64,000 nt of DNA, taken from the NCBI RefSeq assembly GCF_056712565.1, contig NZ_CM160072.1; one strand, given 5' to 3'. The position numbers were made by a program, and so were the translations under genes. The notes beneath the pieces are model-generated. The model was given only the letters and a program-made list of their open reading frames with translations. It was not told the origin of the DNA and searched no databases. Each line of letters opens with the position of its first letter. Position 1 is the first letter of the stretch. This document shows, piece by piece, positions 18,979 through 32,817 of this stretch.

Positions 18979-19528
18979 ACCTGTCTTTTATGCCGGGCGC
19001 ACTGAAATCTCTGTCATTAAATTCGATGACATTCAGGTGCGCATAGTGAGTATCAACGGCGAGCCGTGGTTTGTTGGCGCTGATGTGTGTGCTGCGCTGG
19101 AAATCAGCAATGTTACTGATGCTGTTTCAGTTCTGGATAACGACGAGGTAATGACCCTAGCTTTAACCGAGGGGCATTCCGGTAAGCGTGGTGGTGCCAG
19201 AAGCTGGAATGTTGTCTCTGAATCAGGTTTCTACAAACTGATCGCCCGCAGCCGTAAAGCTTCCACACCTGGCACATTTGCGCACCGTTTCAGTAACTGG
19301 GTATTCCGCGAGGTTATTCCTTCAATCCGCAAAACGGGGAGTTATGGTGTTCCGTTTGCCATGCTGAATGATTTCAGTAAACGCCAGGCTGCATATCAAC
19401 AGGAAGCCAGCAAACGCGGTTACAGGTTACAGCAATGCAAAGAGGCAAAAGATGCACTGGAACGAGAAGAGCGGGCGCTATGGCGTAAATATCAGCCTGA
19501 TTTTCTGGAGGGTGAAAGCAATGTGTAA
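18971..19528 (+). CDS. Bro-N domain protein (phage antirepressor-like)
   Basis: 185-aa ORF; FDDIQVRIVSINGEPWFVGADVCAALEISN is a Bro-N-like signature. Confidence 0.55.
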   Translation: MRKPVFYAGRTEISVIKFDDIQVRIVSINGEPWFVGADVCAALEISNVTDAVSVLDNDEVMTLALTEGHSGKRGGARSWNVVSESGFYKLIARSRKASTPGTFAHRFSNWVFREVIPSIRKTGSYGVPFAMLNDFSKRQAAYQQEASKRGYRLQQCKEAKDALEREERALWRKYQPDFLEGESNV

Positions 19529-19696
19529 CGATCCGAACGTTACAGAAAGAAAAAGCGCCCCGTTGCTGGATAACAGGCAAAACAAAGGCGACCGGGATAG
19601 GTCGCCAGTGGGAACAAAGGAAATCAAACGCATCGCCAACAATGCCAGATTTGCGGCTGGTGGGCAATGTGATCAGTGTGCTGGCTTGCTGGTGGG

Positions 19697-19894
19697 CTAT
19701 TCCTGCTCTTTAGCATCGCCATACTGCGATGTTTTCCAGGTATGCGATCCCATTTTTGTGCGCCTGTACTCTTTTAAGAACTTCTCAAGGACAAACGCAC
19801 ATGGCGCAAATCTTTCCTGTTCTTGTTCGCTTACCGCATTTTTGCGTTGTTTTTTCCTGGATGAGGATAATTTCTTTAATGATTTGTCAGTCAT
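19697..19894 (-). CDS. small hypothetical protein (65 aa), tandem paralog 1, C-terminal ...GDAKEQE
   Basis: Same length and C-terminal KEQE tail as neighbouring ORF; 3-prime DNA similarity (tcctgctcttt); leftward, divergent from the replication operon. Confidence 0.45.
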   Translation of the reverse strand: MTDKSLKKLSSSRKKQRKNAVSEQEQERFAPCAFVLEKFLKEYRRTKMGSHTWKTSQYGDAKEQE

Positions 19895-19951
19895 CGTAGA
19901 TACCTGTAACCCTGTGCGCCACAGTTCACCGCACCACGGCGCTGGTGATGG

Positions 19952-20149
19952 TTACTCCTGCTCTTTGGCCTTCCGGCGCTGTTCATATTTTAATTTGCGT
20001 CCACAGGCATCTAAGACCCATGCGGAAAAATTAGCACTAGGATTAGTTAATTTTTCTTGTTCAACACTGGCATCAATCCCATCTATAAGCTCGTGCGGGA
20101 ATCGAATATTTTTCTTTGCTGATTTGTTGTTTGTGTTTCCGCTAGACAT
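19952..20149 (-). CDS. small hypothetical protein (65 aa), tandem paralog 2, possible DNA-binding regulator
   Basis: MSSGNTNNKSAKKNIRFPHELIDGIDASVEQEK...; adjacent to palindromic operator-like sites at 20178..20257. Confidence 0.45.
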   Translation of the reverse strand: MSSGNTNNKSAKKNIRFPHELIDGIDASVEQEKLTNPSANFSAWVLDACGRKLKYEQRRKAKEQE

Positions 20150-20177
20150 TGGTACACCTCACTTAAATGGATTTGAT

Positions 20178-20257
20178 GGGCGCACACAATACAGCAAAAA
20201 AAGTGAGAAGTTAAGTATTGACATGTGCGCACACATGATTTTAATCTGTGCGCACAG
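20178..20257. promoter_or_regulatory. operator-like region: three copies of palindrome TGTGCGCACA (core 20224..20233; perfect 12-bp palindrome ctgtgcgcacag 20246..20257; half-site copy 20178..20188)
   Basis: Read directly; palindromes bracket a near-consensus promoter. Confidence 0.6.
20218..20245 (+). promoter_or_regulatory. candidate sigma70 promoter of the rightward replication operon (TTGACA, 16 bp, TTTAAT)
   Basis: Perfect -35 hexamer at 20218..20223; -10-like tttaat at 20240..20245; overlapped by operator palindromes. Confidence 0.45.
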
Positions 20258-20354
20258 TTTGGGTTGCATTGCTCAAATTAAGCAACGCCCCGCAGTGCTC
20301 GCAACACATGCAGGGCGTCTAACCACCAACGATAGAAAGCGTATCGAGGTAGCT

Positions 20355-20558
20355 ATGTTAAATCATACCACACACCCGCAAGGGCGGGACTCGCACAACC
20401 TGAATAAATACATCTGGCGTTTTATCGCCCTGAGCACCGCACAACCACGCGTAATACACATCGAGGCCGCCAGCGAACAGGAAGCCCGTCAGCAATCCCC
20501 GGCTGGCTGCGTGATGGTATTTACTGCCCGCATCCGTCAGGGGGAATACTATGCGTGA
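20355..20558 (+). CDS. possible small ORF (67 aa) downstream of switch promoter; stop overlaps start of next gene
   Basis: ATG at 20355 in the frame of a long, otherwise implausible ORF-track ORF; translational coupling (ATGCGTGATGA) to the 85-aa gene. Confidence 0.25.
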   Translation: MLNHTTHPQGRDSHNLNKYIWRFIALSTAQPRVIHIEAASEQEARQQSPAGCVMVFTARIRQGEYYA

Positions 20559-20808
20559 TGAACGATTTATTCTTCTGGAGCAAAAATTCAGTGAAGCGCC
20601 AAAAAATGAAATTGATGCTCTTTTGCATATCGCGAATATGCTAAAAGTAGCAACGTTCCTTATAGTTTCGAATCTGGAGCATGAAACGGCGTTAGATATA
20701 CTGAACAGTGCTGTCGATTATTCTGAATATATTGCCGAGGATAAATACAGGCAATTACCAGATTTGTTAGCCCATAAATATAAAGAAGAACCTCACACCG
20801 GGAAATAA
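20551..20808 (+). CDS. hypothetical protein (85 aa)
   Basis: ORF in operon context upstream of replication gene. Confidence 0.45.
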   Translation: MRDERFILLEQKFSEAPKNEIDALLHIANMLKVATFLIVSNLEHETALDILNSAVDYSEYIAEDKYRQLPDLLAHKYKEEPHTGK

Positions 20809-20810
20809 AC

Positions 20811-21113
20811 ATGAAGAAGATTAAATTTACTGGCTTAAATGCCAGCGGACAGACTCACCCGAAAATCAGGATCGGGGATATTTTCCGGGATAAATATGGT
20901 GACAGCGTGGTTATTAATTCCGTGTATGAACGGCACATTACATACCGCCGCGCAGGGTACGACTATGACTGTGTGATGCCCGTTCATCAGTTCCGGCGTG
21001 ATTTTTCACTGGTATGTGCAGTACCACGCAGTAAGCCCACCAGTAAAGAGAAAGCACGGGCAAATATTCAGGTAATAAAGAACATGATTAACGCATTCAG
21101 GGGCAAGAAATGA
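20811..21113 (+). CDS. hypothetical protein (100 aa)
   Basis: ORF tightly packed between 85-aa ORF and replication gene (overlap ATGA at 21110). Confidence 0.45.
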   Translation: MKKIKFTGLNASGQTHPKIRIGDIFRDKYGDSVVINSVYERHITYRRAGYDYDCVMPVHQFRRDFSLVCAVPRSKPTSKEKARANIQVIKNMINAFRGKK

Positions 21114-23236
21114 AACGCGCACCGAATTTAAAGCACCAGCCGAAAGACAAAATGACGGAGGTGATTATCTTTGCGGGTAGTGATGCCTGGGCACATGCGA
21201 AAGAGTGGAGCGAATGGGCCGGAAAGCATATTGCGGCAGATGATACACATCCAGTTATTCTTGGACCGGAACAACTGGCGAGTCTGGCAGACACGCAAAT
21301 CATCGACAAAGGGCGCTATTACGTGCGCGTTTATCGTGCTGGTGAAATATCAGAGCAGCACCTTACACAGATAGCGACACTGCTTGCAGTGGCGGGTGTG
21401 AAGGAGGCGCGTTGCTACCGCAGCTTTGTTGATCAGCAGCCGGAGGACTGGACACCGCGCATGGCTGGACTGAAGGATGATGCGGAACGCGGTAACAGTC
21501 TGGTGATCAACCTTCCGGCGAAGACAAATTTCACCGGAAATTATGATGACGAATTAAAGCCTCGTGTTGAAAGTCGCGTCGATGGTGTTTTCTGGGTAAC
21601 GCCCAAAGTGGACAAGCAGTCAGGCGAAATTATCCGGCCTGAGACGTGGTTATGTTCTCCGCTTGAACTACTGGGAACAGGAACAATCGGCAAAGAGCAT
21701 TACCGCGTGATGCGCTGGAAAAAACCAGCAAACCATGAGGTCATTACAATGGCGGTCCCGTGCGGAGGCATTGGTGACCGTGACGGCTGGCGGTTGCTGA
21801 AAGACCACGGCCTTAACGTGACGACCAACGGCAAATACAGGGCTATCCTGGCTGACTGGATGCAGTTAAGCGGAAACCATGAGGAATGGCAGTTAAGCAC
21901 AACAACGGGGTGGCATTTTGGTGCGTACATCATGCCGGATGGTTCGGTCATTGGTGAATCAGAGAAACCCATCCTGTTTACCGGAAAAACTGCCGCTGTT
22001 AATGGCTATTCCGTGGCGGGAACAGCGGAGGGCTGGCGCGATACCGTGGCACGGCTGGCTGGTGGTAATCCGTCCATGATGCTGGGTGTGGCGGTATCGC
22101 TATCCGCACCATTAATCGGGCTGGTGGGTGCTGACGGCTTCGGGGTTCATCTTTTTGAGCAATCATCAGCAGGTAAAACCACCACACAGAACATTGCATC
22201 AAGTTTATGGGGAGAGCCGGACGCGCAACGGCTGACCTGGTACGGAACGGCGTTAGGTATCGCCAACGAGGCCGAAGCACATAATGACGGGCTGTTACCC
22301 CTGGATGAAATAGGCCAGGCCGGAAACGCGCGGGAGGTGTCCACGTCAGCCTATACGCTGTTTAACGGTTCCGGGAAATTACAGGGGGCGAAGGACGGCG
22401 GCAACAGGGAGATAAAACACTGGCGCACGGTGGCAATCAGCACCGGAGAAATGGACGTTGAAACATTCCTCAAAACGGAAGGGATAAAAATTAAAGCGGG
22501 GCAGCTTGTCCGTCTGCTTAACGTGCCGATGGAAAAGGCATCGCAGTTTCACGAATACAGCACCGGAAAGGCGCACGCAGACGCGTTAAAAGATGCCTGG
22601 ACAGAAAATCACGGGGCGGCAGGTCGTGAGTGGGTTAAATGGCTGGCAGGTCACCAGCAGGAGGCAAAGGACGCGGTAAGGGCATGTCGCGAGCGGTGGC
22701 GCAACCTGATACCGGAGAGCTACGGCGAGCAGGTTCACCGTGTGGGGGAAAGATTCGCCGTACTGGAGGCCGCGCTTGTGCTTTCCGGTCATGTTACAGG
22801 CTGGGATGTTCAGGCGTGCCGTGATGCAGTTCAGCATAACTTTAATGCCTGGGTGAAGGAATTCGGCACGGGCAACAGGGAATTTAAACAGATGGTTGAA
22901 CAGGCTGAGGCGTTTTTGTCGTCGTTCGGGTTCAGTCGATACCTTCCCTATCCAAACAGCGACGAGCGTGATTTACCGATTAAAGACCTTGCCGGATACA
23001 GAAAGGGGAGTATCAGAAACGAAGATGACGAGTTCCGTTTTTACACGTTCCCGCATGTGTTTGAGGGTGAGATAGCACAGGGATTTAATCCGTCTCACTT
23101 TGCCCGCGCGTTGAGTGCTGCCGGAATGCTGGAAGCGGGAGGCGACCGCCGTTACAAGAAAAAGGCGCTCGGCAGGATTGGCGGGAAGCAGCATATTTTT
23201 TACGTGCTGATGTTCCAGCCTGAAGCAGAAGATTAA
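21110..23236 (+). CDS. putative replication initiator: primase/helicase-like protein with P-loop motif (possibly DUF927-type)
   Basis: 708-aa ORF; P-loop-like FEQSSAGKTTTQ; followed immediately by iteron-like repeats and ssb. Confidence 0.55.
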   Translation: MKRAPNLKHQPKDKMTEVIIFAGSDAWAHAKEWSEWAGKHIAADDTHPVILGPEQLASLADTQIIDKGRYYVRVYRAGEISEQHLTQIATLLAVAGVKEARCYRSFVDQQPEDWTPRMAGLKDDAERGNSLVINLPAKTNFTGNYDDELKPRVESRVDGVFWVTPKVDKQSGEIIRPETWLCSPLELLGTGTIGKEHYRVMRWKKPANHEVITMAVPCGGIGDRDGWRLLKDHGLNVTTNGKYRAILADWMQLSGNHEEWQLSTTTGWHFGAYIMPDGSVIGESEKPILFTGKTAAVNGYSVAGTAEGWRDTVARLAGGNPSMMLGVAVSLSAPLIGLVGADGFGVHLFEQSSAGKTTTQNIASSLWGEPDAQRLTWYGTALGIANEAEAHNDGLLPLDEIGQAGNAREVSTSAYTLFNGSGKLQGAKDGGNREIKHWRTVAISTGEMDVETFLKTEGIKIKAGQLVRLLNVPMEKASQFHEYSTGKAHADALKDAWTENHGAAGREWVKWLAGHQQEAKDAVRACRERWRNLIPESYGEQVHRVGERFAVLEAALVLSGHVTGWDVQACRDAVQHNFNAWVKEFGTGNREFKQMVEQAEAFLSSFGFSRYLPYPNSDERDLPIKDLAGYRKGSIRNEDDEFRFYTFPHVFEGEIAQGFNPSHFARALSAAGMLEAGGDRRYKKKALGRIGGKQHIFYVLMFQPEAED

Positions 23237-23905: not shown

Positions 23906-24403
23906 ATGACAAAGCTGACCATAAACAGAAAACCGAAGGGCATTTACGGCACGCCGCAGAAAACAGCACAGGCGGCGCAGCAGCAGAATAAAACCACATC
24001 GGCGCATAAAGTGATGCCAGATAACCAGAACACACAGCAGAAGCTCACAGGAGCAACACCGCGGCGGCGTATGACCAAACAGCAGCGTAAAAACCGCAGA
24101 CGCGTTAACCGTCTTATTGAGCTATGGCCTGAATTATTCAGCCCGGAATCACCTAAGCCGCTTAAGGTGGGGATATTTGACGACCTGATACAGGATATTG
24201 CCGCGAGAGGTATTTCACTCGGACAGGGAACACTACGCGCAACGCTGGCGCGTTATGTGCAGACTCCGCGCTATTACCGCGCCCTGGTAGCTGGTGGCGC
24301 GCGTTACGACCTGAAAGGCCAGCCGTGCGGCGAGGTAACACCACTACAACAGACGCACGCAGGAAAACTACTGGAGGAGATGAATGGAAATAGTAAGAAA
24401 TGA
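23906..24403 (+). CDS. FinO/ProQ-domain RNA-binding protein
   Basis: 165-aa ORF; [82 protein letters not shown] matches the FinO/ProQ N-terminal domain pattern (PLKIGI...LR.AL..YT.S..YL....GA.R.DL.G...G.V). Confidence 0.7.
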
Positions 24404-25469: not shown

Positions 25470-28001
25470 ATGCCAGTCGTACCAACAGTATCCGGACGTC
25501 AGGTTGAGAGCCGTGGAGTTCAGTCAGCAGGCTTGCAGACGTTTTCTCAGCCAGGTATTAGTGATGCTTTTGTTCGTGCAGGAGCAGAGGCAATTGATGT
25601 TCTGGGTCAGGCAAAACAGCGTGCCAATATTGCCTTGGTTCAGGAGGCATCCCTTAAACTCAGTCAGACAGGCAGTGATCTGCTGAATAATCCTGAAACA
25701 GGATTGCTTAACCTGAAAGGGAAAAATGCTATTGGAAAAGGCCATGAGTATACGCAGCAGTTTGATGCTCAGGTCGAACAACTGGCTATGTCGCTGCCGG
25801 ATGAACAGGCCCGTAATGCTTTCATGCAGCAGGCACAGCAGCAGCGCATTCAGTTCACTACGCAGGCCGGGCGGTACGAGATCGGGCAAATAAATGCCTA
25901 CGAAGAAGGCCAGTTTCAGGCTACGCTGCTGAACAATGGTAAAAATGCCGCAGCATTGTATGGCGACAACGCCGCATACGTATTGGCTAATAAGCAAACT
26001 TTCCAGCAAATTGAGGAGTACGGCATTGCGCATGGCTGGAGCGACGAGCAGATTCGGGCCAGGAAAATCGAGTTTAAAGAAGCAACAGCAAAAGCAACTG
26101 CTCAAAATGCTATTGGAGCAAACTATCTTCAGGTAAGACAGCAAAACGGCGAGTTAAGCGATACTGCTGCTGGAGCTCGCCGTGCTGTAGCAGATAGTGG
26201 ATCTTCCGATCGTACCCGCGGTATACGCAACAATAACCCCGGCAATCTTGAATACAGCAAAACTAATCCGTGGGTTGGGCAGACTGGTGATGATGGTCGC
26301 TTTGCTAAATTCGAAACACCTGAACACGGTATTCGTGCATTAGGGCGGAACCTGATGTCGTATCAGCGGCAGGGTATTGATACCGTCAGCGAGATAATTA
26401 ATCGCTGGGCACCGCCTACTGATAAAAATGACACTATGTCGTATATCAAAGCAGTGTGCGAACAACTTGGCGTTTCTGCTGATGATCCTATAGATGCATC
26501 TAATCCGGATACCCTGAAGGCGCTTTGTGCAGCCATTATCCATCATGAAAACGGTAGCCAGCCATACAGTGATCAGCAGTTAACTGCAGGTGTTAGTGCT
26601 GCGCTGGGGCTTTCTCAGCTACCGACAAAAAATAAACGTTATACCGGTGTAGCCTGGTTCGATGCTTTAAGTGAATCGGATCAGGCCAGCGTGTTGCGAC
26701 AGACTGATGCACTAGCCAGACAACAGCAGGCTGAATATAAAACGATGCTCGACAGCCAGGTTCGCGATGCGACAGCTGCGTATATGCGTGGCGTTGAATT
26801 TCCTAACCCACCAGGTGAGGCTGATTTTATTGCAGCTTATGGCGTCAGAGAAGGAAACCTGCGATATACCGAGTTCAGAAATACGCAGATCGCCGGACAG
26901 TATATAGGCTCTTTCCGCAACATGCCGACAAGCAGCATTACCGCATATGTTGAGCAATTGCGCCCGGATACTGGTGAAACAGGGGAGGGGTATGCGTCTC
27001 GTGCGAAGTTATTCGACCGGGTATCGGCGGCAGCCACGAAGGTAATAACCCAGAGGCAGAATAATCCGTTTAGTGCAGCGGTGGAAATCGGAGCCTATAA
27101 GCCGATCACCAGCAACAACCCTGACGACATCACTGCCGAGGTGGCTAACCGTTTCTCGTCGCAGGAAAGCTTACGCGCGTTGGGAATTAATGCCCCAATC
27201 CTCAACAGTGAAGAGGCGGCTGCGCTGGCACAGCAGGTGCGCGGCACTCAAAACGTTGACCAGACAATTAAACTGTTGCAGAGCATGGGGGAAAAGCTAC
27301 CTGCGCCAGCAATACGGCAGGTGGCATCTGTAATTGCTCCGAACAGTGCAGCAACAGCCTATTCTGCGCTGCTGCTGGGCACGCCGGATAATCAGTACGA
27401 TAACACCAGGCCGTCGATCCCATATAGTCAGTTCATCGGGTATAAGCCGACGATGAACAAGTACGACGTTGCAAAGGTTATTCTTTCCGGTGACCAACTA
27501 CTGAATCCGACGAAGGCTATGAAGAATGCGGGCATAACTCCGGTACAGTTGCCGAGCGAAGATAAAATGAAGCGCGCTTTCGACGAACAGGTTGGTAATG
27601 CATTTGCCCGTAACCCAGAGACGCGCCAGATCAGTTATAGCCTTTTCAAAGCCGCTTACGCAGGAATCGCTTATCAGTCTGGTAATGCGTCTATGACGAG
27701 CACAGATGCGGTTAACTCCGATGTGGCGGAGAAAGCTGCGCAGTACGCAACAGGCGGTGTATACAAGAGATTTAATGGTGGTGATGTTGTAATGCCTTTC
27801 GGCATGGATGAATCCACTTTCAAAGATCGCTATACCACATCAGCGAAACAAGCACTGAAAGATGCCGGACTTAACGTAAATGCAGTGTCAAACTTCACAC
27901 CAGTTAATATCGGCAATAACCGGTATCGGCTGGTAAATGGTAGCGGACGCTGGGCAACAGATCCCAGAACCAATGAAGCTATTGTCGTGAGGGTTGAATA
28001 A
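25470..28001 (+). CDS. large hypothetical protein A (843 aa), Q/A-rich, with conserved central segment GIRNNNPGNLEYSKTNPWVGQ...WAPPTDKNDT...HHENG
   Basis: Strong SD (aggagg) 8 nt upstream of ATG; stop overlaps next start (TAATG). Composition resembles phage internal virion / ejection or polyvalent proteins; no family confidently assigned. Confidence 0.6.
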   Translation: MPVVPTVSGRQVESRGVQSAGLQTFSQPGISDAFVRAGAEAIDVLGQAKQRANIALVQEASLKLSQTGSDLLNNPETGLLNLKGKNAIGKGHEYTQQFDAQVEQLAMSLPDEQARNAFMQQAQQQRIQFTTQAGRYEIGQINAYEEGQFQATLLNNGKNAAALYGDNAAYVLANKQTFQQIEEYGIAHGWSDEQIRARKIEFKEATAKATAQNAIGANYLQVRQQNGELSDTAAGARRAVADSGSSDRTRGIRNNNPGNLEYSKTNPWVGQTGDDGRFAKFETPEHGIRALGRNLMSYQRQGIDTVSEIINRWAPPTDKNDTMSYIKAVCEQLGVSADDPIDASNPDTLKALCAAIIHHENGSQPYSDQQLTAGVSAALGLSQLPTKNKRYTGVAWFDALSESDQASVLRQTDALARQQQAEYKTMLDSQVRDATAAYMRGVEFPNPPGEADFIAAYGVREGNLRYTEFRNTQIAGQYIGSFRNMPTSSITAYVEQLRPDTGETGEGYASRAKLFDRVSAAATKVITQRQNNPFSAAVEIGAYKPITSNNPDDITAEVANRFSSQESLRALGINAPILNSEEAAALAQQVRGTQNVDQTIKLLQSMGEKLPAPAIRQVASVIAPNSAATAYSALLLGTPDNQYDNTRPSIPYSQFIGYKPTMNKYDVAKVILSGDQLLNPTKAMKNAGITPVQLPSEDKMKRAFDEQVGNAFARNPETRQISYSLFKAAYAGIAYQSGNASMTSTDAVNSDVAEKAAQYATGGVYKRFNGGDVVMPFGMDESTFKDRYTTSAKQALKDAGLNVNAVSNFTPVNIGNNRYRLVNGSGRWATDPRTNEAIVVRVE

Positions 28002-30061
28002 TGTCTGATGTTTTTTCTTTGGCTCCAGAAGGTCAGGCATGGATTGACGACAAAACAGTTGCCAACCCAGCAAGGCCAGAAGACTACGATCCGACTCCCT
28101 TCCAGGGTTCAGGTACTGCACTTTTGAGCGGCGTGGCGGAGGGGGCTCTCGGTCTCGCGCAGTCTGCCGTCGGATTCAGCAAGCGCCTGATTAGCGATCC
28201 GGCATTTACCGCAGACGTGGCACCGACTGTTAATATTTTTCGGGAGATGTTCCCTGATGCTGACAAAACACTGAATGATACATACGACACGATCGGAAAA
28301 CAGTTACAGGATGCCCGCAGCTATGTGAAGCCTGATGCAGGCAGTCAGGGAATGGCGGCTGAGGTATTAAATGAGCTTGGTAAATTTGTTCCTGCAATCG
28401 GAACAACTATGTTTGGCGGTCCCCTCATCGGCGCTGCTACAGCTTTCAGTTCTACGTATGAGCAGTCCTATCAGGATTTTAAAGGGAAGGGAGTAGACGA
28501 GGCTACGGCGCGTAACCTGGCAACGCAGCAAAGCCTTTTCAATGCTGTGGGTATGGCCTTACCCGCTGCCGTCGGCACCACACTGGCAACGCGCATTGCC
28601 TCAGGTGTGGCAATCAACACCGGATTCGGTGGACTGAACCGTTACTCTGTCGGCGCAACACTGGAGGAAAAAGGCTACACGGAGATGGCAAAACAGTACC
28701 GGGTATTTGACGGTCAGGCGATGTTAGTCGATGCCGTTTTAGGCGGGGTCTTTGGTGGCGTTCATCACCTGACTACCCATAATAACCATGATGGTACAGA
28801 GTCGAACATTTCTGCAGAAGAAATAAAATCAACTTTTGGTGAACATTATCAGCAATCTCCTGATGGTAACATTGAGTCAATGGTTCGTGATTTATCTGAT
28901 TCAGGAGTAATAGAACTTATTAATGAACCAGCAATAAAAAATAGTGATGGAGAAATACTTCTGAATAAAGGTCATGTGACAGTAGCTTCTGGAAAAGAAC
29001 CAATAATAAGAATAAATATTAATGGATTAAAAGATCATGAAGAACTGTTAGAAACCCTTCATCACGAGGCGCTTCATCTTGAGCAGCGCCATTACCCTGA
29101 CTGGAAGGCCAGAAAGCTAGCTAATGCTGTACTTAAATCTGCAAACAAGCATTCTGACTATCCTGAATTTGCATATGGGATGTCACAATATTATGAATAT
29201 AAGAAAAGGGGTGAGTACCCTGAAACATATCCTGAGTGGTTGTACGCTGAAGAAGTTGCCGCACATGCAGTAAATCCATCTCTAAAGACAAGCGTTTCAT
29301 CATGGGAAAAAATTATTTCAGGTTTTAAAGCCTATATATTCAGATACAGTGGTATTCAGGTTGGAACCGTTACACCTGAGCAGTTACGGTTACTCGTAAG
29401 TATGCGTCTTCGCAATATGAAACTGGAAGCCGCAGTCGAAAAAGTTTTTGGTATCCGGGCAAGGGAAAGAATAAAACCAAGCGATATTGATGCAGCCCAC
29501 ATTTTGAATGAGGGGCTTCATTACGATATTGAATCGTCACCAGTGCTTCACACCAGCAATGAGAGCATCAACAGCCATGTTGACGCCATGGATGAAGCAT
29601 ACAGGCAACTTAATGATGGTCAGCCTGTAAATGTTGGGGGGATGGCGCGAGGGCTTGATGGTCCATTGCGATCAGATATATCTGATACTTACCAAGAGCA
29701 ATACCATGAAATACAAAAGGTTTTTGAAGAAAATGGTGTCAGATATGAAACATCATCAGAGCCAATTAGTGAATCGCCTGTCCCTCGTGCTGAAAGTGCT
29801 TTCTCATCGGCTGGTGAACACAGAGGGGACGTCAGCGTTGATCCAGATACAGGGCAGGTTCTCTCATCCAACAGCTATGACCTTATGGCTGCCAGAGACA
29901 TGGCTGTTGCCAATCCTGAGCTGACTATAGCTCACCCGGAAACCGGAAACCCGACAAAACTTTCTGATCTCCTGGCTGAGTTGGATGAACAGATTAAGAC
30001 AGTCCAGAACGAATCGAAGGTTTATTCTGTAGCGGCAGCGTGCTTCTTGAGGAACCCATAA
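28001..30061 (+). CDS. large hypothetical protein B (686 aa) with glycine-zipper-like hydrophobic N-terminal region and HExxH zinc-metallopeptidase motif (LHHEALHLEQRH)
   Basis: Translationally coupled on both sides; HEALH motif encoded within a conspicuously AT-rich segment (about 28790..29350). Confidence 0.6.
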   Translation: MSDVFSLAPEGQAWIDDKTVANPARPEDYDPTPFQGSGTALLSGVAEGALGLAQSAVGFSKRLISDPAFTADVAPTVNIFREMFPDADKTLNDTYDTIGKQLQDARSYVKPDAGSQGMAAEVLNELGKFVPAIGTTMFGGPLIGAATAFSSTYEQSYQDFKGKGVDEATARNLATQQSLFNAVGMALPAAVGTTLATRIASGVAINTGFGGLNRYSVGATLEEKGYTEMAKQYRVFDGQAMLVDAVLGGVFGGVHHLTTHNNHDGTESNISAEEIKSTFGEHYQQSPDGNIESMVRDLSDSGVIELINEPAIKNSDGEILLNKGHVTVASGKEPIIRININGLKDHEELLETLHHEALHLEQRHYPDWKARKLANAVLKSANKHSDYPEFAYGMSQYYEYKKRGEYPETYPEWLYAEEVAAHAVNPSLKTSVSSWEKIISGFKAYIFRYSGIQVGTVTPEQLRLLVSMRLRNMKLEAAVEKVFGIRARERIKPSDIDAAHILNEGLHYDIESSPVLHTSNESINSHVDAMDEAYRQLNDGQPVNVGGMARGLDGPLRSDISDTYQEQYHEIQKVFEENGVRYETSSEPISESPVPRAESAFSSAGEHRGDVSVDPDTGQVLSSNSYDLMAARDMAVANPELTIAHPETGNPTKLSDLLAELDEQIKTVQNESKVYSVAAACFLRNP

Positions 30062-32817
30062 TGAAACAGGCATGTGTTGAAGCTATTGCGCAGACACTTG
30101 GTCGCCAGCCAAAGGCTGATGAGCTGAAAAATATCGAAGATCGTATCAAAGAAGCAGTGCAACATGTGCACAGAAAGAATGCAAAAGAAGGCAAAAGTGG
30201 TATTCCTGATGCTCAAACATACATGGATGCTGCAGAACTGGTACGCCAGCGTGTGGTTCATGATGTGTACAAGAAAAGACAGCGTGTTGCCCAGAATGCG
30301 ATCGCCATCAGTAAAATTACTGACACTCTCGATGCTAACATCCCGCCTGATCAGCAGACACCTGTTAATTTGCAGCAGTTTATTTTTGCTGGCCGACGAT
30401 CGAGAGACAAAGCTGATATCTCCGTTGCTTCTGCTGAAGAGCTTGCAATTGGGGCATATCAGGACTGGTCCCGTCAGCTCAGTGCTGAACTTCTAAAAGC
30501 AGGTGATGACGTCCGCAAATTCTTCGAGCAGAGCAGGGCGCTTGGAGAGCAGCGGTTTCGGAGTGTATTCGACAGGCAGGCGGCAAAGTCTGCACAACTC
30601 CAGATCCTGAAAGAAATTTATGGCGAAGATACCGGGAATCCCCTGGCGAAGAAAATTGCACAGATTTGGAAGGATGTAACAGGCCGTGTTCGTCATGAGA
30701 TGAACGACAACGGCTTTGACATAGGCCTGCGAGAAGACTGGCATACGCCATATGTGGATGATGCTGACCTTATTCGCAATGCCGGGCGCGAAGAATGGCT
30801 GGCATCGTTACCAGTGGCAGAGCAAGCTACAGCACGTCTTTCAGGTCGCCAGCCACCGATTGAGTTTGCCCGCCAGAAATGGGTTGATGACGCTTACAAC
30901 ACGCAGGATCGCAGCAATTACGTTAATCCTGACGGCAGCATTATGAATGACGTCGAGTACCGTCAGGCACTGGAAGCGATCTTTGAAACGAAGGCCACTG
31001 ATGGGGCAAACAAAATTGAGCCCGGTACATTTATGGGAGCCGGAGGAATAAAGAGCCGTGGTTCTCAGCACAGGGTGATGGCGTTCAAGGATGCGCAGTC
31101 ACACTTCGCCTATATGGAGCGATACACTCAGCAGCCGCTGGTGGGGGTGATGATGTCGCACCTGCAATCATCATCCAGGGATTTGGGCGTCGTTAAAGCC
31201 TTTGGTCCGGACGCCGAAAGAAACTTTTCCCTGGTACTGGATCGCATCTATAAGCGCGCAGTAACAGGCGGGAAACGCAAAAAAGAAATGGAGGATGAGG
31301 CCAAATTAGTAGCCCGTATGTTCAACTCAATGGCTGGCCTAAATGGTGTCGCTTCATCGAGTGTGTTCTCTTCAGCTGTTGGTGGTCTGCGTAACCTGAT
31401 GACCAGCGCCATGCTTGGCACCAGCGTACTGACAGCAACCAGCGACCAGGCAATTATGCGGGCAAATGCGCAGGCGCTGGGCTTTACCCGTGGTGGAATG
31501 CGGCTTTCCGTTAACACTATCAAAAACCTGTTTAGTGGAGATGCCAAAAAGGCGAATGCTGAACTCGGTCTGCTGGTGGATTCACATGCTGCTGTGGTTT
31601 CGAAAATGGGCGGGTTTGACTTGTCTCGCGGCATAACTGGCTGGTTCGCAGAGAAGACACTGAAGTGGTCCGGGCTGATCGCTATGGACCGCGCAAACAA
31701 AGCGTCGTTTGGTCTCCTGATGTACAAAAACATTGGCGAGCTGACCAGAAAATTTAAGACGCTGGACGATATGAAAGGAACCGATAAAACCATTCTGGCT
31801 AACAAGGGATGGAGCAATGAGGACTGGGCCATCATGGCAGCGGCAGAACTCAGGCCGATGACTACTGCCGGGCATATGGGGATGACGCCAGACGCGATTT
31901 ACGCTGTGCCCGATAACGTAATCGCCGACATTATGGCAGACCGTATTACCCGGATTCGTGCCGGGAGTGAAAAGGCACTGGCAGCACTTGGAGATCTCCC
32001 TCCAGAACGCCTGAAACGGATGAAAGAAGCATTCGACGCTGAGGCTGAGCAGACCATCACGCGCATGATTCGTAATGCACGCGCTGAAGCAGCCCATAAA
32101 TTGCTGGGAATTACGCACGGTGAGATGACCAATGCTGTGACCACCGCTACGGGTATTGATACATATGCCCGTGATGATGCTGGCGAGTTAATGAAGAGCT
32201 TCATGCTCTTCAAAACAACCCCATTTGCTGGATTTCGGCAACTTGTTAACAGAACACGGGATTTGGACACCGTTCCGGCCATTAAATTTCTGGCCTCATA
32301 TATCGGGGGAACAACTCTTGCTGGTATGTTTGCGATCCAGATGAACAGTTTGTTAAATGGTAATGATCCGCTGGATATGACAAAACCAACCACATGGGTT
32401 CAGGCTTTACTGAAAGGTGGTTCGTTCGGTATCTACGGTGATTTTATTTTCCAGGACCATACGCAATATGGCTCCAGCATCGGTGCCACTATGGGTGGCC
32501 CTGTGTTGAGCTTTGCAGAGCAGTTAACAAAATTACTGATTACTAACCCACAGAAGGCTCTACAGGGTGAAGAAACATCATTCGGTGCCGATGCACTGAA
32601 AACAGCCCGCATGATCACCCCATTCGCAAACCTGTGGTATGCGAAAGCGATAACCAATCACCTGATATTGCAACAACTTCAGGAGATGGCAAACCCTGGT
32701 TACAATGATCGAGTAAGGGACCGCGCGCAACGGGAGTTCGACATAACGAGTTGGTGGGAACCGGGTGCTATTGCGCCACGTAGAGCACCGGATTTTGGAA
32801 AGGCGGTAGGGGAATGA
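30061..32817 (+). CDS. large hypothetical protein C (about 918 aa)
   Basis: ATG at 30061 overlaps stop of protein B (TAATG); ORF track offers an upstream GTG at 30040. Stop overlaps start of the next small ORF (ATGA). Confidence 0.6.
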   Translation: MKQACVEAIAQTLGRQPKADELKNIEDRIKEAVQHVHRKNAKEGKSGIPDAQTYMDAAELVRQRVVHDVYKKRQRVAQNAIAISKITDTLDANIPPDQQTPVNLQQFIFAGRRSRDKADISVASAEELAIGAYQDWSRQLSAELLKAGDDVRKFFEQSRALGEQRFRSVFDRQAAKSAQLQILKEIYGEDTGNPLAKKIAQIWKDVTGRVRHEMNDNGFDIGLREDWHTPYVDDADLIRNAGREEWLASLPVAEQATARLSGRQPPIEFARQKWVDDAYNTQDRSNYVNPDGSIMNDVEYRQALEAIFETKATDGANKIEPGTFMGAGGIKSRGSQHRVMAFKDAQSHFAYMERYTQQPLVGVMMSHLQSSSRDLGVVKAFGPDAERNFSLVLDRIYKRAVTGGKRKKEMEDEAKLVARMFNSMAGLNGVASSSVFSSAVGGLRNLMTSAMLGTSVLTATSDQAIMRANAQALGFTRGGMRLSVNTIKNLFSGDAKKANAELGLLVDSHAAVVSKMGGFDLSRGITGWFAEKTLKWSGLIAMDRANKASFGLLMYKNIGELTRKFKTLDDMKGTDKTILANKGWSNEDWAIMAAAELRPMTTAGHMGMTPDAIYAVPDNVIADIMADRITRIRAGSEKALAALGDLPPERLKRMKEAFDAEAEQTITRMIRNARAEAAHKLLGITHGEMTNAVTTATGIDTYARDDAGELMKSFMLFKTTPFAGFRQLVNRTRDLDTVPAIKFLASYIGGTTLAGMFAIQMNSLLNGNDPLDMTKPTTWVQALLKGGSFGIYGDFIFQDHTQYGSSIGATMGGPVLSFAEQLTKLLITNPQKALQGEETSFGADALKTARMITPFANLWYAKAITNHLILQQLQEMANPGYNDRVRDRAQREFDITSWWEPGAIAPRRAPDFGKAVGE

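Follow-up and report, generated by a model that had tools for sequence, protein, structure and literature searches.

The 64,000-nucleotide (nt) stretch analysed here, referred to as the window (NCBI RefSeq assembly GCF_056712565.1, contig NZ_CM160072.1), belongs to Escherichia coli and carries, at 19,697-20,558, two divergent operons separated by what appears to be the repressor/operator switch of a phage satellite. To the left lie two minus-strand open reading frames (ORFs) of 65 amino acids (aa) each, a ylcI-like gene (ORF2) and ORF1, and to the right a run of genes whose stop and start codons overlap (20355-23236), which opens with a gene for an Icd-like protein and leads through an 85-aa ORF and a DUF4222 gene to a DUF927 primase (Table 1). 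A reading made from the DNA alone, here called the sequence-only reading, had described a genetic switch, with operators over a promoter that points into a replication operon and two divergent 65-aa ORFs to the left of that promoter. The ORFs and the replication operon lie where they had been placed, and the notion of a switch is supported by related loci, where the palindromes appear to behave as operators.

Palindromes, promoters and the YlcI-type protein

The palindrome had been counted three times, once as a perfect 12-bp form, and this stands: exact copies of TGTGCGCACA are found at O2 and, inside the perfect palindrome CTGTGCGCACAG, at O3, and the third copy, O1, has one mismatch. Sites within one mismatch of TGTGCGCACA are expected about 3.6 times in the 64-kb window and were found four times, three of them within 80 bp; from this site rate, the chance of such a three-site cluster anywhere in the window is estimated at about 2.5e-5. 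The O1 copy keeps its position in related loci and usually deviates from O2 more than O3 does.

The rightward promoter had been given as a consensus promoter, TTGACA-16-TTTAAT, and both hexamers and the spacing are present, but it is not fully consensus, and neither it nor the leftward switch promoter was called in a promoter scan of the window; TTTAAT does not have the A at -11, which explains why the rightward promoter was missed. Comparison of 34 related loci gives a conserved -10 of the form TAnnnT with a 17-18 nt spacer, and its equivalent in the window, TAATCT, lies two bases downstream of TTTAAT. The location of the leftward promoter is proposed from a reading of the sequence, and a TATnnT element on the ylcI strand is kept at the same place in relatives (e.g. 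TATACT, TATAGT).

Two further observations concern the palindromes themselves. The O2 palindrome together with ATTTTAAT (20222-20246) was flagged as terminator-like on the plus strand, a call that is probably incidental because O2 in relatives is often not a perfect palindrome, though such a form could impede read-through from the alpA/Bro operon. An operator-like sequence, CTGTGGCGCACAG, which is the operator sequence with one extra G, stands at 19913-19925 in the spacer between ylcI and ORF1; it was considered as a fourth operator and rejected, because it forms the 3' arm of a hairpin that is conserved in this spacer, and since the related locus L002 has the same repressor type and no operator-like form in this spacer, the site is not a conserved fourth operator.

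The product of ylcI belongs to the YlcI/YnfO family (NF041551, 59 bits against a cutoff of 30; PF13132, DUF3950, E 1.6e-6), six divergent E. coli variants score 60-72 bits for this family, and its homologues form 115 clusters across Enterobacterales. It is likely to have a ribbon-helix-helix (RHH) fold, as judged from several profile and motif signals. Sub-threshold Pfam matches were obtained to PSK_trans_fac (best 3.5e-3, in 3 of 21 members), a family of the RHH clan, and to HicB_lk_antitox (0.04-0.25), a family whose C-terminal part is RHH. The E. coli variants carry a G-E-S/T turn before the second helix, a feature typical of the fold, and hhalign placed KSAKKNIRFPHELIDGIDA on KMPQFNLRWPREVLDLVRK of Arc with a pairwise E of 0.0086 and a probability of 4.7%. 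The guess of an RHH fold in the sequence-only reading agrees with these weak signals. Against it, PDB sequence-profile searches and Foldseek with the YlcI protein gave zero usable matches, and a linked tandem AlphaFold2 (AF2) model of low confidence (mean predicted local distance difference test, pLDDT, 62.7) has no strand assigned and no sheet. Four E. coli relatives (L006, L007, L008 and L010) carry a 101-aa YlcI form, in which a C-terminal insertion of about 40 residues (AEGSGENPLVSSLDALA...) precedes the conserved RRKxKEQE tail; this segment could be an oligomerisation or sensing domain.

Table 1. Features of the switch region and its flanking operons, in window coordinates
Feature	Position	Strand	Description
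Intrinsic terminator of the ylcI-ORF1 operon	19577-19606	-	GGCGACCTATCCCGGTCGCC then TTTGTTTT; terminator scan
Direct repeat, copy 1	19683-19714	-	ORF1 last codons (AKEQE and stop) and next bases
ORF1	19697-19894	-	65-aa basic protein, phrog_21027; accessory, swappable second gene of leftward operon
Intercistronic spacer	19895-19951	-	57 nt; conserved hairpin, 3' arm yields CTGTGGCGCACAG
Direct repeat, copy 2	19938-19969	-	ylcI last codons (AKEQE and stop) and next bases
ylcI-like gene (ORF2)	19952-20149	-	65 aa, YlcI/YnfO (DUF3950); candidate operator-specific repressor
Operator O1	20177-20186		TGGGCGCACA, one mismatch to TGTGCGCACA; abuts -10/start region of leftward promoter
Proposed leftward promoter	20214-20209; 20191-20186	-	TTAACT, 17 nt, TATTGT; putative, from sequence reading
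Rightward promoter, -35	20218-20223	+	TTGACA; TTGAC-type hexamer at same position in 34/34 anchored loci
Operator O2	20224-20233		TGTGCGCACA, exact; within -35/-10 spacer; extended palindrome CATGTGCGCACACATG at 20222-20237
Rightward promoter, -10	20240-20245 or 20242-20247	+	TTTAAT (16-nt spacer) or TAATCT (18-nt spacer)
Operator O3	20246-20257		CTGTGCGCACAG, perfect 12-bp palindrome; exact TGTGCGCACA at 20247-20256; overlaps -10 end and transcription start
Leader hairpin 1	20285-20318	+	5' untranslated region; covariation
Leader motif	20319-20330	+	CTAACCACCAAC, nearly invariant, single-stranded; alignment conservation
Leader hairpin 2	20330-20349	+	CGATA...TATCG, ends at Shine-Dalgarno GAGG; minimum-free-energy fold
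Icd-like gene	20355-20558	+	67 aa, first gene of operon; NF033153, 68.6 bits vs cutoff 25
85-aa ORF	20551-20808	+	ORF listing; annotated hypothetical
DUF4222 gene	20811-21113	+	annotation of identical ExPEC XM and SCU-105 loci
DUF927 primase/helicase gene	21110-23236	+	phrog_1139 DNA primase, 2e-174

Operators and YlcI-type proteins co-vary across loci

The ylcI/Icd intergenic region was compared with those of nine further E. coli islands, of EcCICFT073 (the island of strain CFT073) and of 26 non-E. coli loci, the latter drawn from one representative genome per species. The same layout is seen in 10 E. coli and 26 other loci (36 in total), the other genera being Serratia, Rahnella, Pectobacterium, Klebsiella, Pantoea, Xenorhabdus, Brenneria, Affinibrenneria, Proteus, Arsenophonus, Gilliamella and Orbus. 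The common order runs from the ylcI ATG through O1, the leftward TATnnT, an A-tract, the TTGAC-type -35, O2 and the TAnnnT -10 to O3, and these positions stay fixed while the operator sequence differs from locus to locus.

Each operator type is accompanied by its own N-terminal strand peptide in the YlcI-type protein. The strand KKNIRFP goes with TGTGCGCACA in the window, L002, Rahnella L014/L015 and Xenorhabdus L033. Among the other E. coli islands, TVAARVP is paired with GTGTTnAACAC (L003), QLNARFP with GTGCGATnCAC (L004/L005), LTTVRVP with GTGTGTTTCA (L006/L008), SLTARIP with GTGTAAGnCA (L007), KLQARAP with (C/G)TGGAWTCCA(G/C) (L009), and ALKARVP with three copies of GTGGGCCACAC (EcCICFT073); elsewhere KKHIRFP is found with GTGGGTnCACAC (Pantoea, Xenorhabdus) and RKDIRFP with TGTRCGGACA (Gilliamella, Orbus). 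This co-variation was quantified over 34 anchorable loci, which represent 14 strand-peptide types. When the O2 core was compared with the O1/O3 zones, the mean summed Hamming distance was 3.7 within the same locus and 7.7 for loci of other types, and 0 of 5000 permutations reached the observed recurrence of a locus's own operator.

Three pairs of loci bear on whether this pattern only reflects descent. All three operators are identical base for base between the window and Rahnella L014, with an intergenic identity of only 73%. L004 and L006 are 78% identical with near-identical flanks, and they differ exactly at the operator positions. The L006 and L007 proteins, which go with different operators, differ at 15 positions, of which nine lie within residues 4-23 and none within residues 24-58. 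Operator identity across genera and differences confined to the operators cannot be explained by relatedness alone.

Neighbouring proteins do not follow the operators. The same ORF1 (WP_157918692.1) is encoded in L004 and in L006, whose operators are different, while the window and L002 have the same operators and unrelated ORF1 genes. AlpA differs between the window and strain SCU-105 in spite of their identical switches, and L004 and L006 have nearly the same AlpA with different operators; the Icd-like protein is about 90% identical throughout and almost invariant across at least seven operator types. A motif that is particular to its locus and stands there three times, always at set places in the promoter, must have a binder that is equally locus-specific, and ylcI is the only such gene at hand. 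The comparative evidence is consistent with specificity residing in an N-terminal strand and symmetric operators, as expected of RHH proteins.

A candidate immunity-type switch and its alternatives

These observations make it probable that the region is an immunity-type repressor/operator switch with the YlcI-type protein as its repressor. The comparisons show the anatomy, the kept positions, the co-variation of protein and operators and its absence in the neighbouring proteins; binding by YlcI, its fold and the leftward promoter are inferred, as is the sign of regulation, from where the operators lie. Occupancy of operators that cover core promoter elements excludes RNA polymerase and so leads to repression; because the operators here overlap such elements, repression of the Icd-like/primase operon would follow. 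The YlcI/YnfO protein, probably an RHH dimer, would read DNA through its N-terminal arm and beta-strand (residues ~9-18, ...KSAKKNIRFP) and bind the three copies of TGTGCGCACA. O2, in the spacer, and O3, at the -10 end and start, would together block RNA polymerase at the rightward promoter and thereby keep both the primase operon and the Icd-like cell-division inhibitor silent for as long as the island stays integrated. O1 would act more weakly at the leftward -10/start to give negative autoregulation of the ylcI-ORF1 operon, and its deviation from the consensus and its abutment on the leftward TATTGT are the layout expected for such weaker autoregulation. Islands that differ in protein/operator specificity would then constitute immunity types.

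Derepression would most likely come about either through a helper-phage protein that acts on the repressor or through rightward transcription that comes from the alpA/Bro genes and is driven by AlpA. The alpA/Rha/AntA/BRO genes are convergent with ORF1-ylcI, and the terminator scan found no plus-strand terminator-like site between 19528 and the switch, so that read-through could cross ORF1-ylcI in antisense and reach the replication operon. Such transcription might interfere with the expression of ylcI and at the same time circumvent the repressed promoter. The intrinsic terminator of the ylcI-ORF1 operon is unidirectional because the plus strand has no T-run after the hairpin, and compensatory changes preserve this hairpin in relatives (GGCGACCGCCCCCGGTCGCC in L004, GGCCACCGTAGCGGGTGGCC in L005). 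In EcCICFT073, it has been shown that over-expression of AlpA alone induces excision and replication and that alpA itself is induced by helper phages (PMC6092414). A second lead comes from E. coli ECOR61, where a phage accessory protein, orf24, sets off a growth arrest that needs an Icd-like protein together with five linked genes, one of which encodes a primase (bioRxiv 2023.04.06.535777).

Several points weigh against the proposed switch or narrow it. The rightward -10 is weak, and both promoters went uncalled by the scan tool. Since AlpA over-expression alone induces EcCICFT073 replication (PMC6092414), the YlcI-type protein is not the sole control. Part of the co-variation may be cassette linkage, as protein and operators are less than 150 bp apart, and the strand alone does not fix specificity, because the operators of the TKGIRFP group are similar and not identical.

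Should YlcI indeed repress the replication/Icd operon, DUF3950 would gain a function, and the missing quiescence control in the life cycle of Gram-negative phage-inducible chromosomal islands (PICIs) would be supplied. Incompatibility or immunity groups would be predicted among co-resident satellites (the region was found in up to six copies per E. coli genome), and a set of short, orthogonal repressor/operator pairs would become available. It would also offer the testable idea that phage proteins which trigger Icd-like-dependent arrest, as in ECOR61, act via the switch (bioRxiv 2023.04.06.535777). A wider form of the proposal, which we put forward tentatively and hold to be somewhat less likely than its contrary, is that YlcI/YnfO (DUF3950) proteins are the master repressors of Gram-negative PICIs, EcCICFT073 included, with at least 14 heteroimmune specificities exchanged as cassettes, that they keep Icd-like/primase silent until a helper signal, and that a leader RNA not described before and supported by covariation (a hairpin, CUAACCAC and a Shine-Dalgarno hairpin) adds a second, post-transcriptional layer.

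The best surviving alternative, although an unlikely one, is that ORF1 is a partner of the repressor, as a co-repressor, anti-repressor or helper-phage sensor, and that the pair forms the switch in Escherichia. ORF1 lies in the same operon, behind a fixed 57-nt spacer with its hairpin in most E. coli islands including EcCICFT073 (the spacer length and its GCGCCGT...ACGGCGC inverted repeat are conserved among E. coli relatives), and it has a basic N-terminus and a conserved core helix, FxLExFLKE, around which alternative N- and C-terminal modules are arranged as a mosaic. It matches one PHROG family (phrog_21027, 6e-46, function not annotated), gave zero matches against Pfam and NCBIfam, and its 44 homologue clusters are all from Escherichia. 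What speaks against a partner role is that about 12 other genera have the full switch with no ORF1, no comparable gene being found 3' of ylcI in 26 of 26 non-E. coli loci, and that ORF1 types assort independently of operator and repressor types. Presence of both small ORFs in homologous islands had been set as a test by the sequence-only reading, and ylcI passes it where ORF1 does not. Its proposal of a repressor and a paralog divides in the same way: ylcI is a strong repressor candidate, but ORF1 does not co-vary with the operators and is no second repressor.

Nor is ORF1 a paralog of ylcI. The tandem duplication that had been proposed was examined by BLASTP and by global and local alignments with shuffles, and nothing was found beyond the last five residues: BLASTP of ORF1 against ORF2 gave zero alignments at E<=100, 9 of 65 aligned positions are identical, and the best local alignment is the C-terminal KEQE stretch, with a score reached by 578 of 2000 shuffles. 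The shared tail stems from a 32-nt direct repeat, which consists of the AKEQE codons, the stop and CC..CACCAGC..GCC (GCTAAAGAGCAGGAATAGCC--CACCAGCAAGCC aligned with GCCAAAGAGCAGGAGTAACCATCACCAGC--GCC). What follows the ORF1 stop in the window is identical to what follows the ylcI stop in L009, an island without ORF1, and this junction and the repeat show ORF1 to be a cassette between two copies of the ylcI 3' junction. The window-type ORF1 has acquired the last codons of a ylcI gene, while the variants in L004-L006 run into common downstream sequence without a KEQE tail. The equal 65-aa length of the two proteins is a coincidence.

It is also improbable that the operators are bound by something other than YlcI, for instance AlpA, the Icd-like protein, a host protein or a repressor of the helper phage, and that YlcI does something else. 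Such a binder is suggested by phrog_6196 and phrog_1743, which label Icd-like proteins as transcriptional repressors, and by AlpA, which activates PICI genes in EcCICFT073; tight linkage between ylcI and the operators could moreover mimic functional co-variation. The evidence against such a binder is that the Icd-like protein hardly varies across the operator types, AlpA changes where the switch does not and stays nearly the same where the operators differ, and a host factor cannot account for at least 14 locus-specific motifs.

The further suggestion of a toxin/antitoxin-like pair, in type II form with an RHH antitoxin, ORF1 as toxin and palindromes that only autoregulate the pair, is very improbable. 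Obligate co-occurrence with a recognisable toxin family, by which such systems are known, is not seen for ylcI-ORF1: ORF1 has no toxin family match in Pfam, NCBIfam or PADLOC, is restricted to Escherichia, has no copy in any of the 26 loci outside E. coli or in certain E. coli islands such as L009, all of which keep ylcI and the operators, and is exchanged independently of ylcI. In addition, the pair's own promoter has one of the three operators, the other two being on the divergent replication promoter. That the palindromes are chance or structural repeats is effectively refuted by the comparative data, for although short GC-rich palindromes are common and O2 with its T-rich stretch was flagged as terminator-like, the cluster would hardly arise by chance, and its positions are kept in 36 loci while the sequence is replaced, with no permutation matching the observed recurrence.

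Leader RNA, the surrounding island and known systems

The leader between O3 and the Icd-like start (20285-20349) is structured and carries CUAACCAC(C)AAC as an invariant motif. When 15 loci belonging to nine genera (Escherichia, Serratia, Rahnella, Klebsiella, Xenorhabdus, Proteus, Arsenophonus, Gilliamella, Orbus) are compared, 93% of the cells of hairpin 1 are paired and 9 of its 10 pairs show compensatory changes; 0 of 500 shuffles reach the observed pairing, and slid controls lie far lower. The arms of hairpin 2 change in step across loci (CGATA/TATCG, CGTTA/TAACG, CGTAA/TTACG, CATTA/TAATG), and a single-sequence fold holds both hairpins with an unremarkable energy (z = -1.4). The leader is kept even at loci whose downstream gene is not Icd-like, and it may determine how efficiently the first cistron is translated or how stable it is. 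An immunity RNA of the C4/CI kind upstream of the Icd-like gene was considered and rejected: Rfam, including C4 (RF01695) and isrK, gave no match for the window at the gathering score or at E<=10, nor for 17 relatives at E<=0.1, and no complement of the conserved leader motif was found elsewhere in the window. A gene for a ProQ/FinO-family RNA-binding protein (23906-24403, plus strand) lies directly 3' of the island gene for the single-stranded DNA-binding protein (SSB), and its product could be a partner of the leader.

A 396-aa open frame on the plus strand (19368-20558) is in frame with the Icd-like gene and crosses ORF1, ylcI and the entire switch in antisense orientation. RefSeq lists N-terminally extended Icd-like proteins (94-134 aa) in L002, L003 and L005, and these extensions look like annotation artefacts because their end points vary and they cross the promoter, unless read-through transcripts are translated.

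The 1-kb switch region is identical in strain SCU-105, and a 12-kb stretch of the extraintestinal pathogenic E. coli (ExPEC) strain XM is identical to the window, the element being located there between yicC and dinD. Matches to the 1-kb region were found in 1428 of 5426 complete E. coli genomes, at six or fewer places per genome, and a search of a phage database returned a single weak match, within the Icd-like coding part. According to the RefSeq annotation, the 5' part of the island holds genes for an integrase, a 216-aa ORF, an AlpA-type helix-turn-helix protein, Rha, AntA/AntB and BRO-N, followed by a hypothetical protein (ORF1), YlcI/YnfO (ORF2), Icd-like, a hypothetical protein, DUF4222 and the DUF927 primase, and in the 3' part by SSB, ProQ/FinO, a PerC pseudogene and three large genes. 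Our own hidden Markov model searches of the island proteins agree with this order. Gram-negative PICIs were recognised by the order int, alpA, (Bro zone), primase/replication zone and late zone, over about 10-20 kb at a specific attachment site. The element shows int/alpA/Rha-AntA-BRO/switch/primase/SSB/ProQ/PerC/virion-like genes over about 19 kb at the yicC-dinD site, and by this backbone it appears to be a Gram-negative PICI-type phage satellite. A four-zone plan (integration, Bro, replication, late) has been described for Gram-negative PICIs, and the zone order in the window fits it (PMC10111431). Induction by helper phages, replication and packaging have been covered for relatives of the island (PMC6092414; PMC11773190). 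One related island, L009 (E. coli O157:H7 NE122; 1-169 and 334-1572), lies directly after a truncated gene for a phage terminase large subunit, a position that marks it as a helper-embedded PICI (PMC10111431) with its own repressor/operator type.

The late zone (25470-32817, plus strand) consists of three large genes of 843, 686 and 918 aa with matches to phage virion, ejection or "head" protein families: the 843- and 918-aa products match 'head protein'/virion-structural families (phrog_992, phrog_684), and the 686-aa product matches phrog_1145, whose function is not annotated. These genes resemble captured helper late or ejection genes, to judge from their family matches, and are likened to the DNA-transfer-like genes reported for EcCIMP1 (PMC11773190). 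PADLOC gave zero matches to known defence families among the island cargo, ORF1 and the 85-aa ORF. Outside the island, the window holds a tRNA-Sec gene (selC, 60580-60674, plus strand), at which a 388-aa ORF (60598-61764) starts directly; selC is a classic integration site of islands. A JUMPstart RNA element (5312-5350, minus strand; 55 bits) upstream of the waaQ/rfaQ lipopolysaccharide core operon is an ordinary chromosomal feature.

The closest phage parallel is P22 immI with Arc and Mnt, where small repressors (53-83 aa) use short symmetric operators over core elements of divergent promoters. Arc also has a similar N-terminal strand motif, N-[IL]-R-[FW]-P-x-E-[LV]. Sequence-family membership, however, is not detectable (hhalign probability 4.7%), and the fold of the switch protein is a presumed one; a single protein would face three operators and control satellite replication genes in place of an antirepressor. 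As in lambda cI/cro with OR1-3, three related operators span back-to-back promoters and the weakest copy would serve autoregulation, and as in lambdoid heteroimmune variants, repressor and operator specificities appear to be exchanged as a cassette on a conserved backbone; unlike lambda, there is no Cro-like antagonist gene, fold and size are different, and SOS cleavage is not indicated. The position of an Icd-type gene first behind a structured leader recalls P1 immI (c4 RNA-icd-ant) and P4 immunity (CI RNA, seqA/B/C), and leader-encoded immunity RNAs are described for P4-like satellites and some Gram-negative PICIs (PMC10111431). In contrast to P1 and P4, the Rfam searches for C4/isrK were negative, the leader has no complementary target in the window, and specificity would lie in protein and operators.

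Among satellites, the Stl/Rpr repressors of Gram-positive PICIs (Staphylococcus aureus pathogenicity islands, SaPIs) are likewise encoded divergently beside an excision/replication promoter and impose quiescence (PMC6092414). Stl, however, is a large helix-turn-helix protein that is inactivated by specific helper-phage proteins, whereas YlcI has 59-101 aa and belongs to another family, and Gram-negative PICIs, as opposed to Gram-positive ones, also need the activator AlpA. EcCICFT073, the prototype of Gram-negative PICIs, shares the backbone of the island, with int, alpA, ORF1, ylcI, Icd-like, small ORFs, DUF4222, primase, SSB and PerC and the same three-operator layout. It differs from the window in strand and operator (ALKARVP/GTGGGCCACAC as against KKNIRFP/TGTGCGCACA), in its late zone (genes for capsid and decoration proteins as against the three large virion/ejection-like genes of the window), and in its integration site (the roxA/phoQ region as against yicC/dinD). 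Its small switch genes carry only late-issued RefSeq locus tags (C_RS30800, C_RS30120, C_RS30125), which suggests that they were added in a later re-annotation. The authors who described EcCICFT073 considered the global repressor in Gram-negative PICIs unclear (PMC6092414), and later papers still treat AlpA as the master regulator. The searchable literature yielded no paper that gives YlcI, YnfO or DUF3950 a function, and no repressor named for EcCICFT073 or other Gram-negative PICIs. Set beside these systems, the mechanism is an ordinary one, and what is new is a protein family with no assigned function that would fill a missing component of Gram-negative PICIs.

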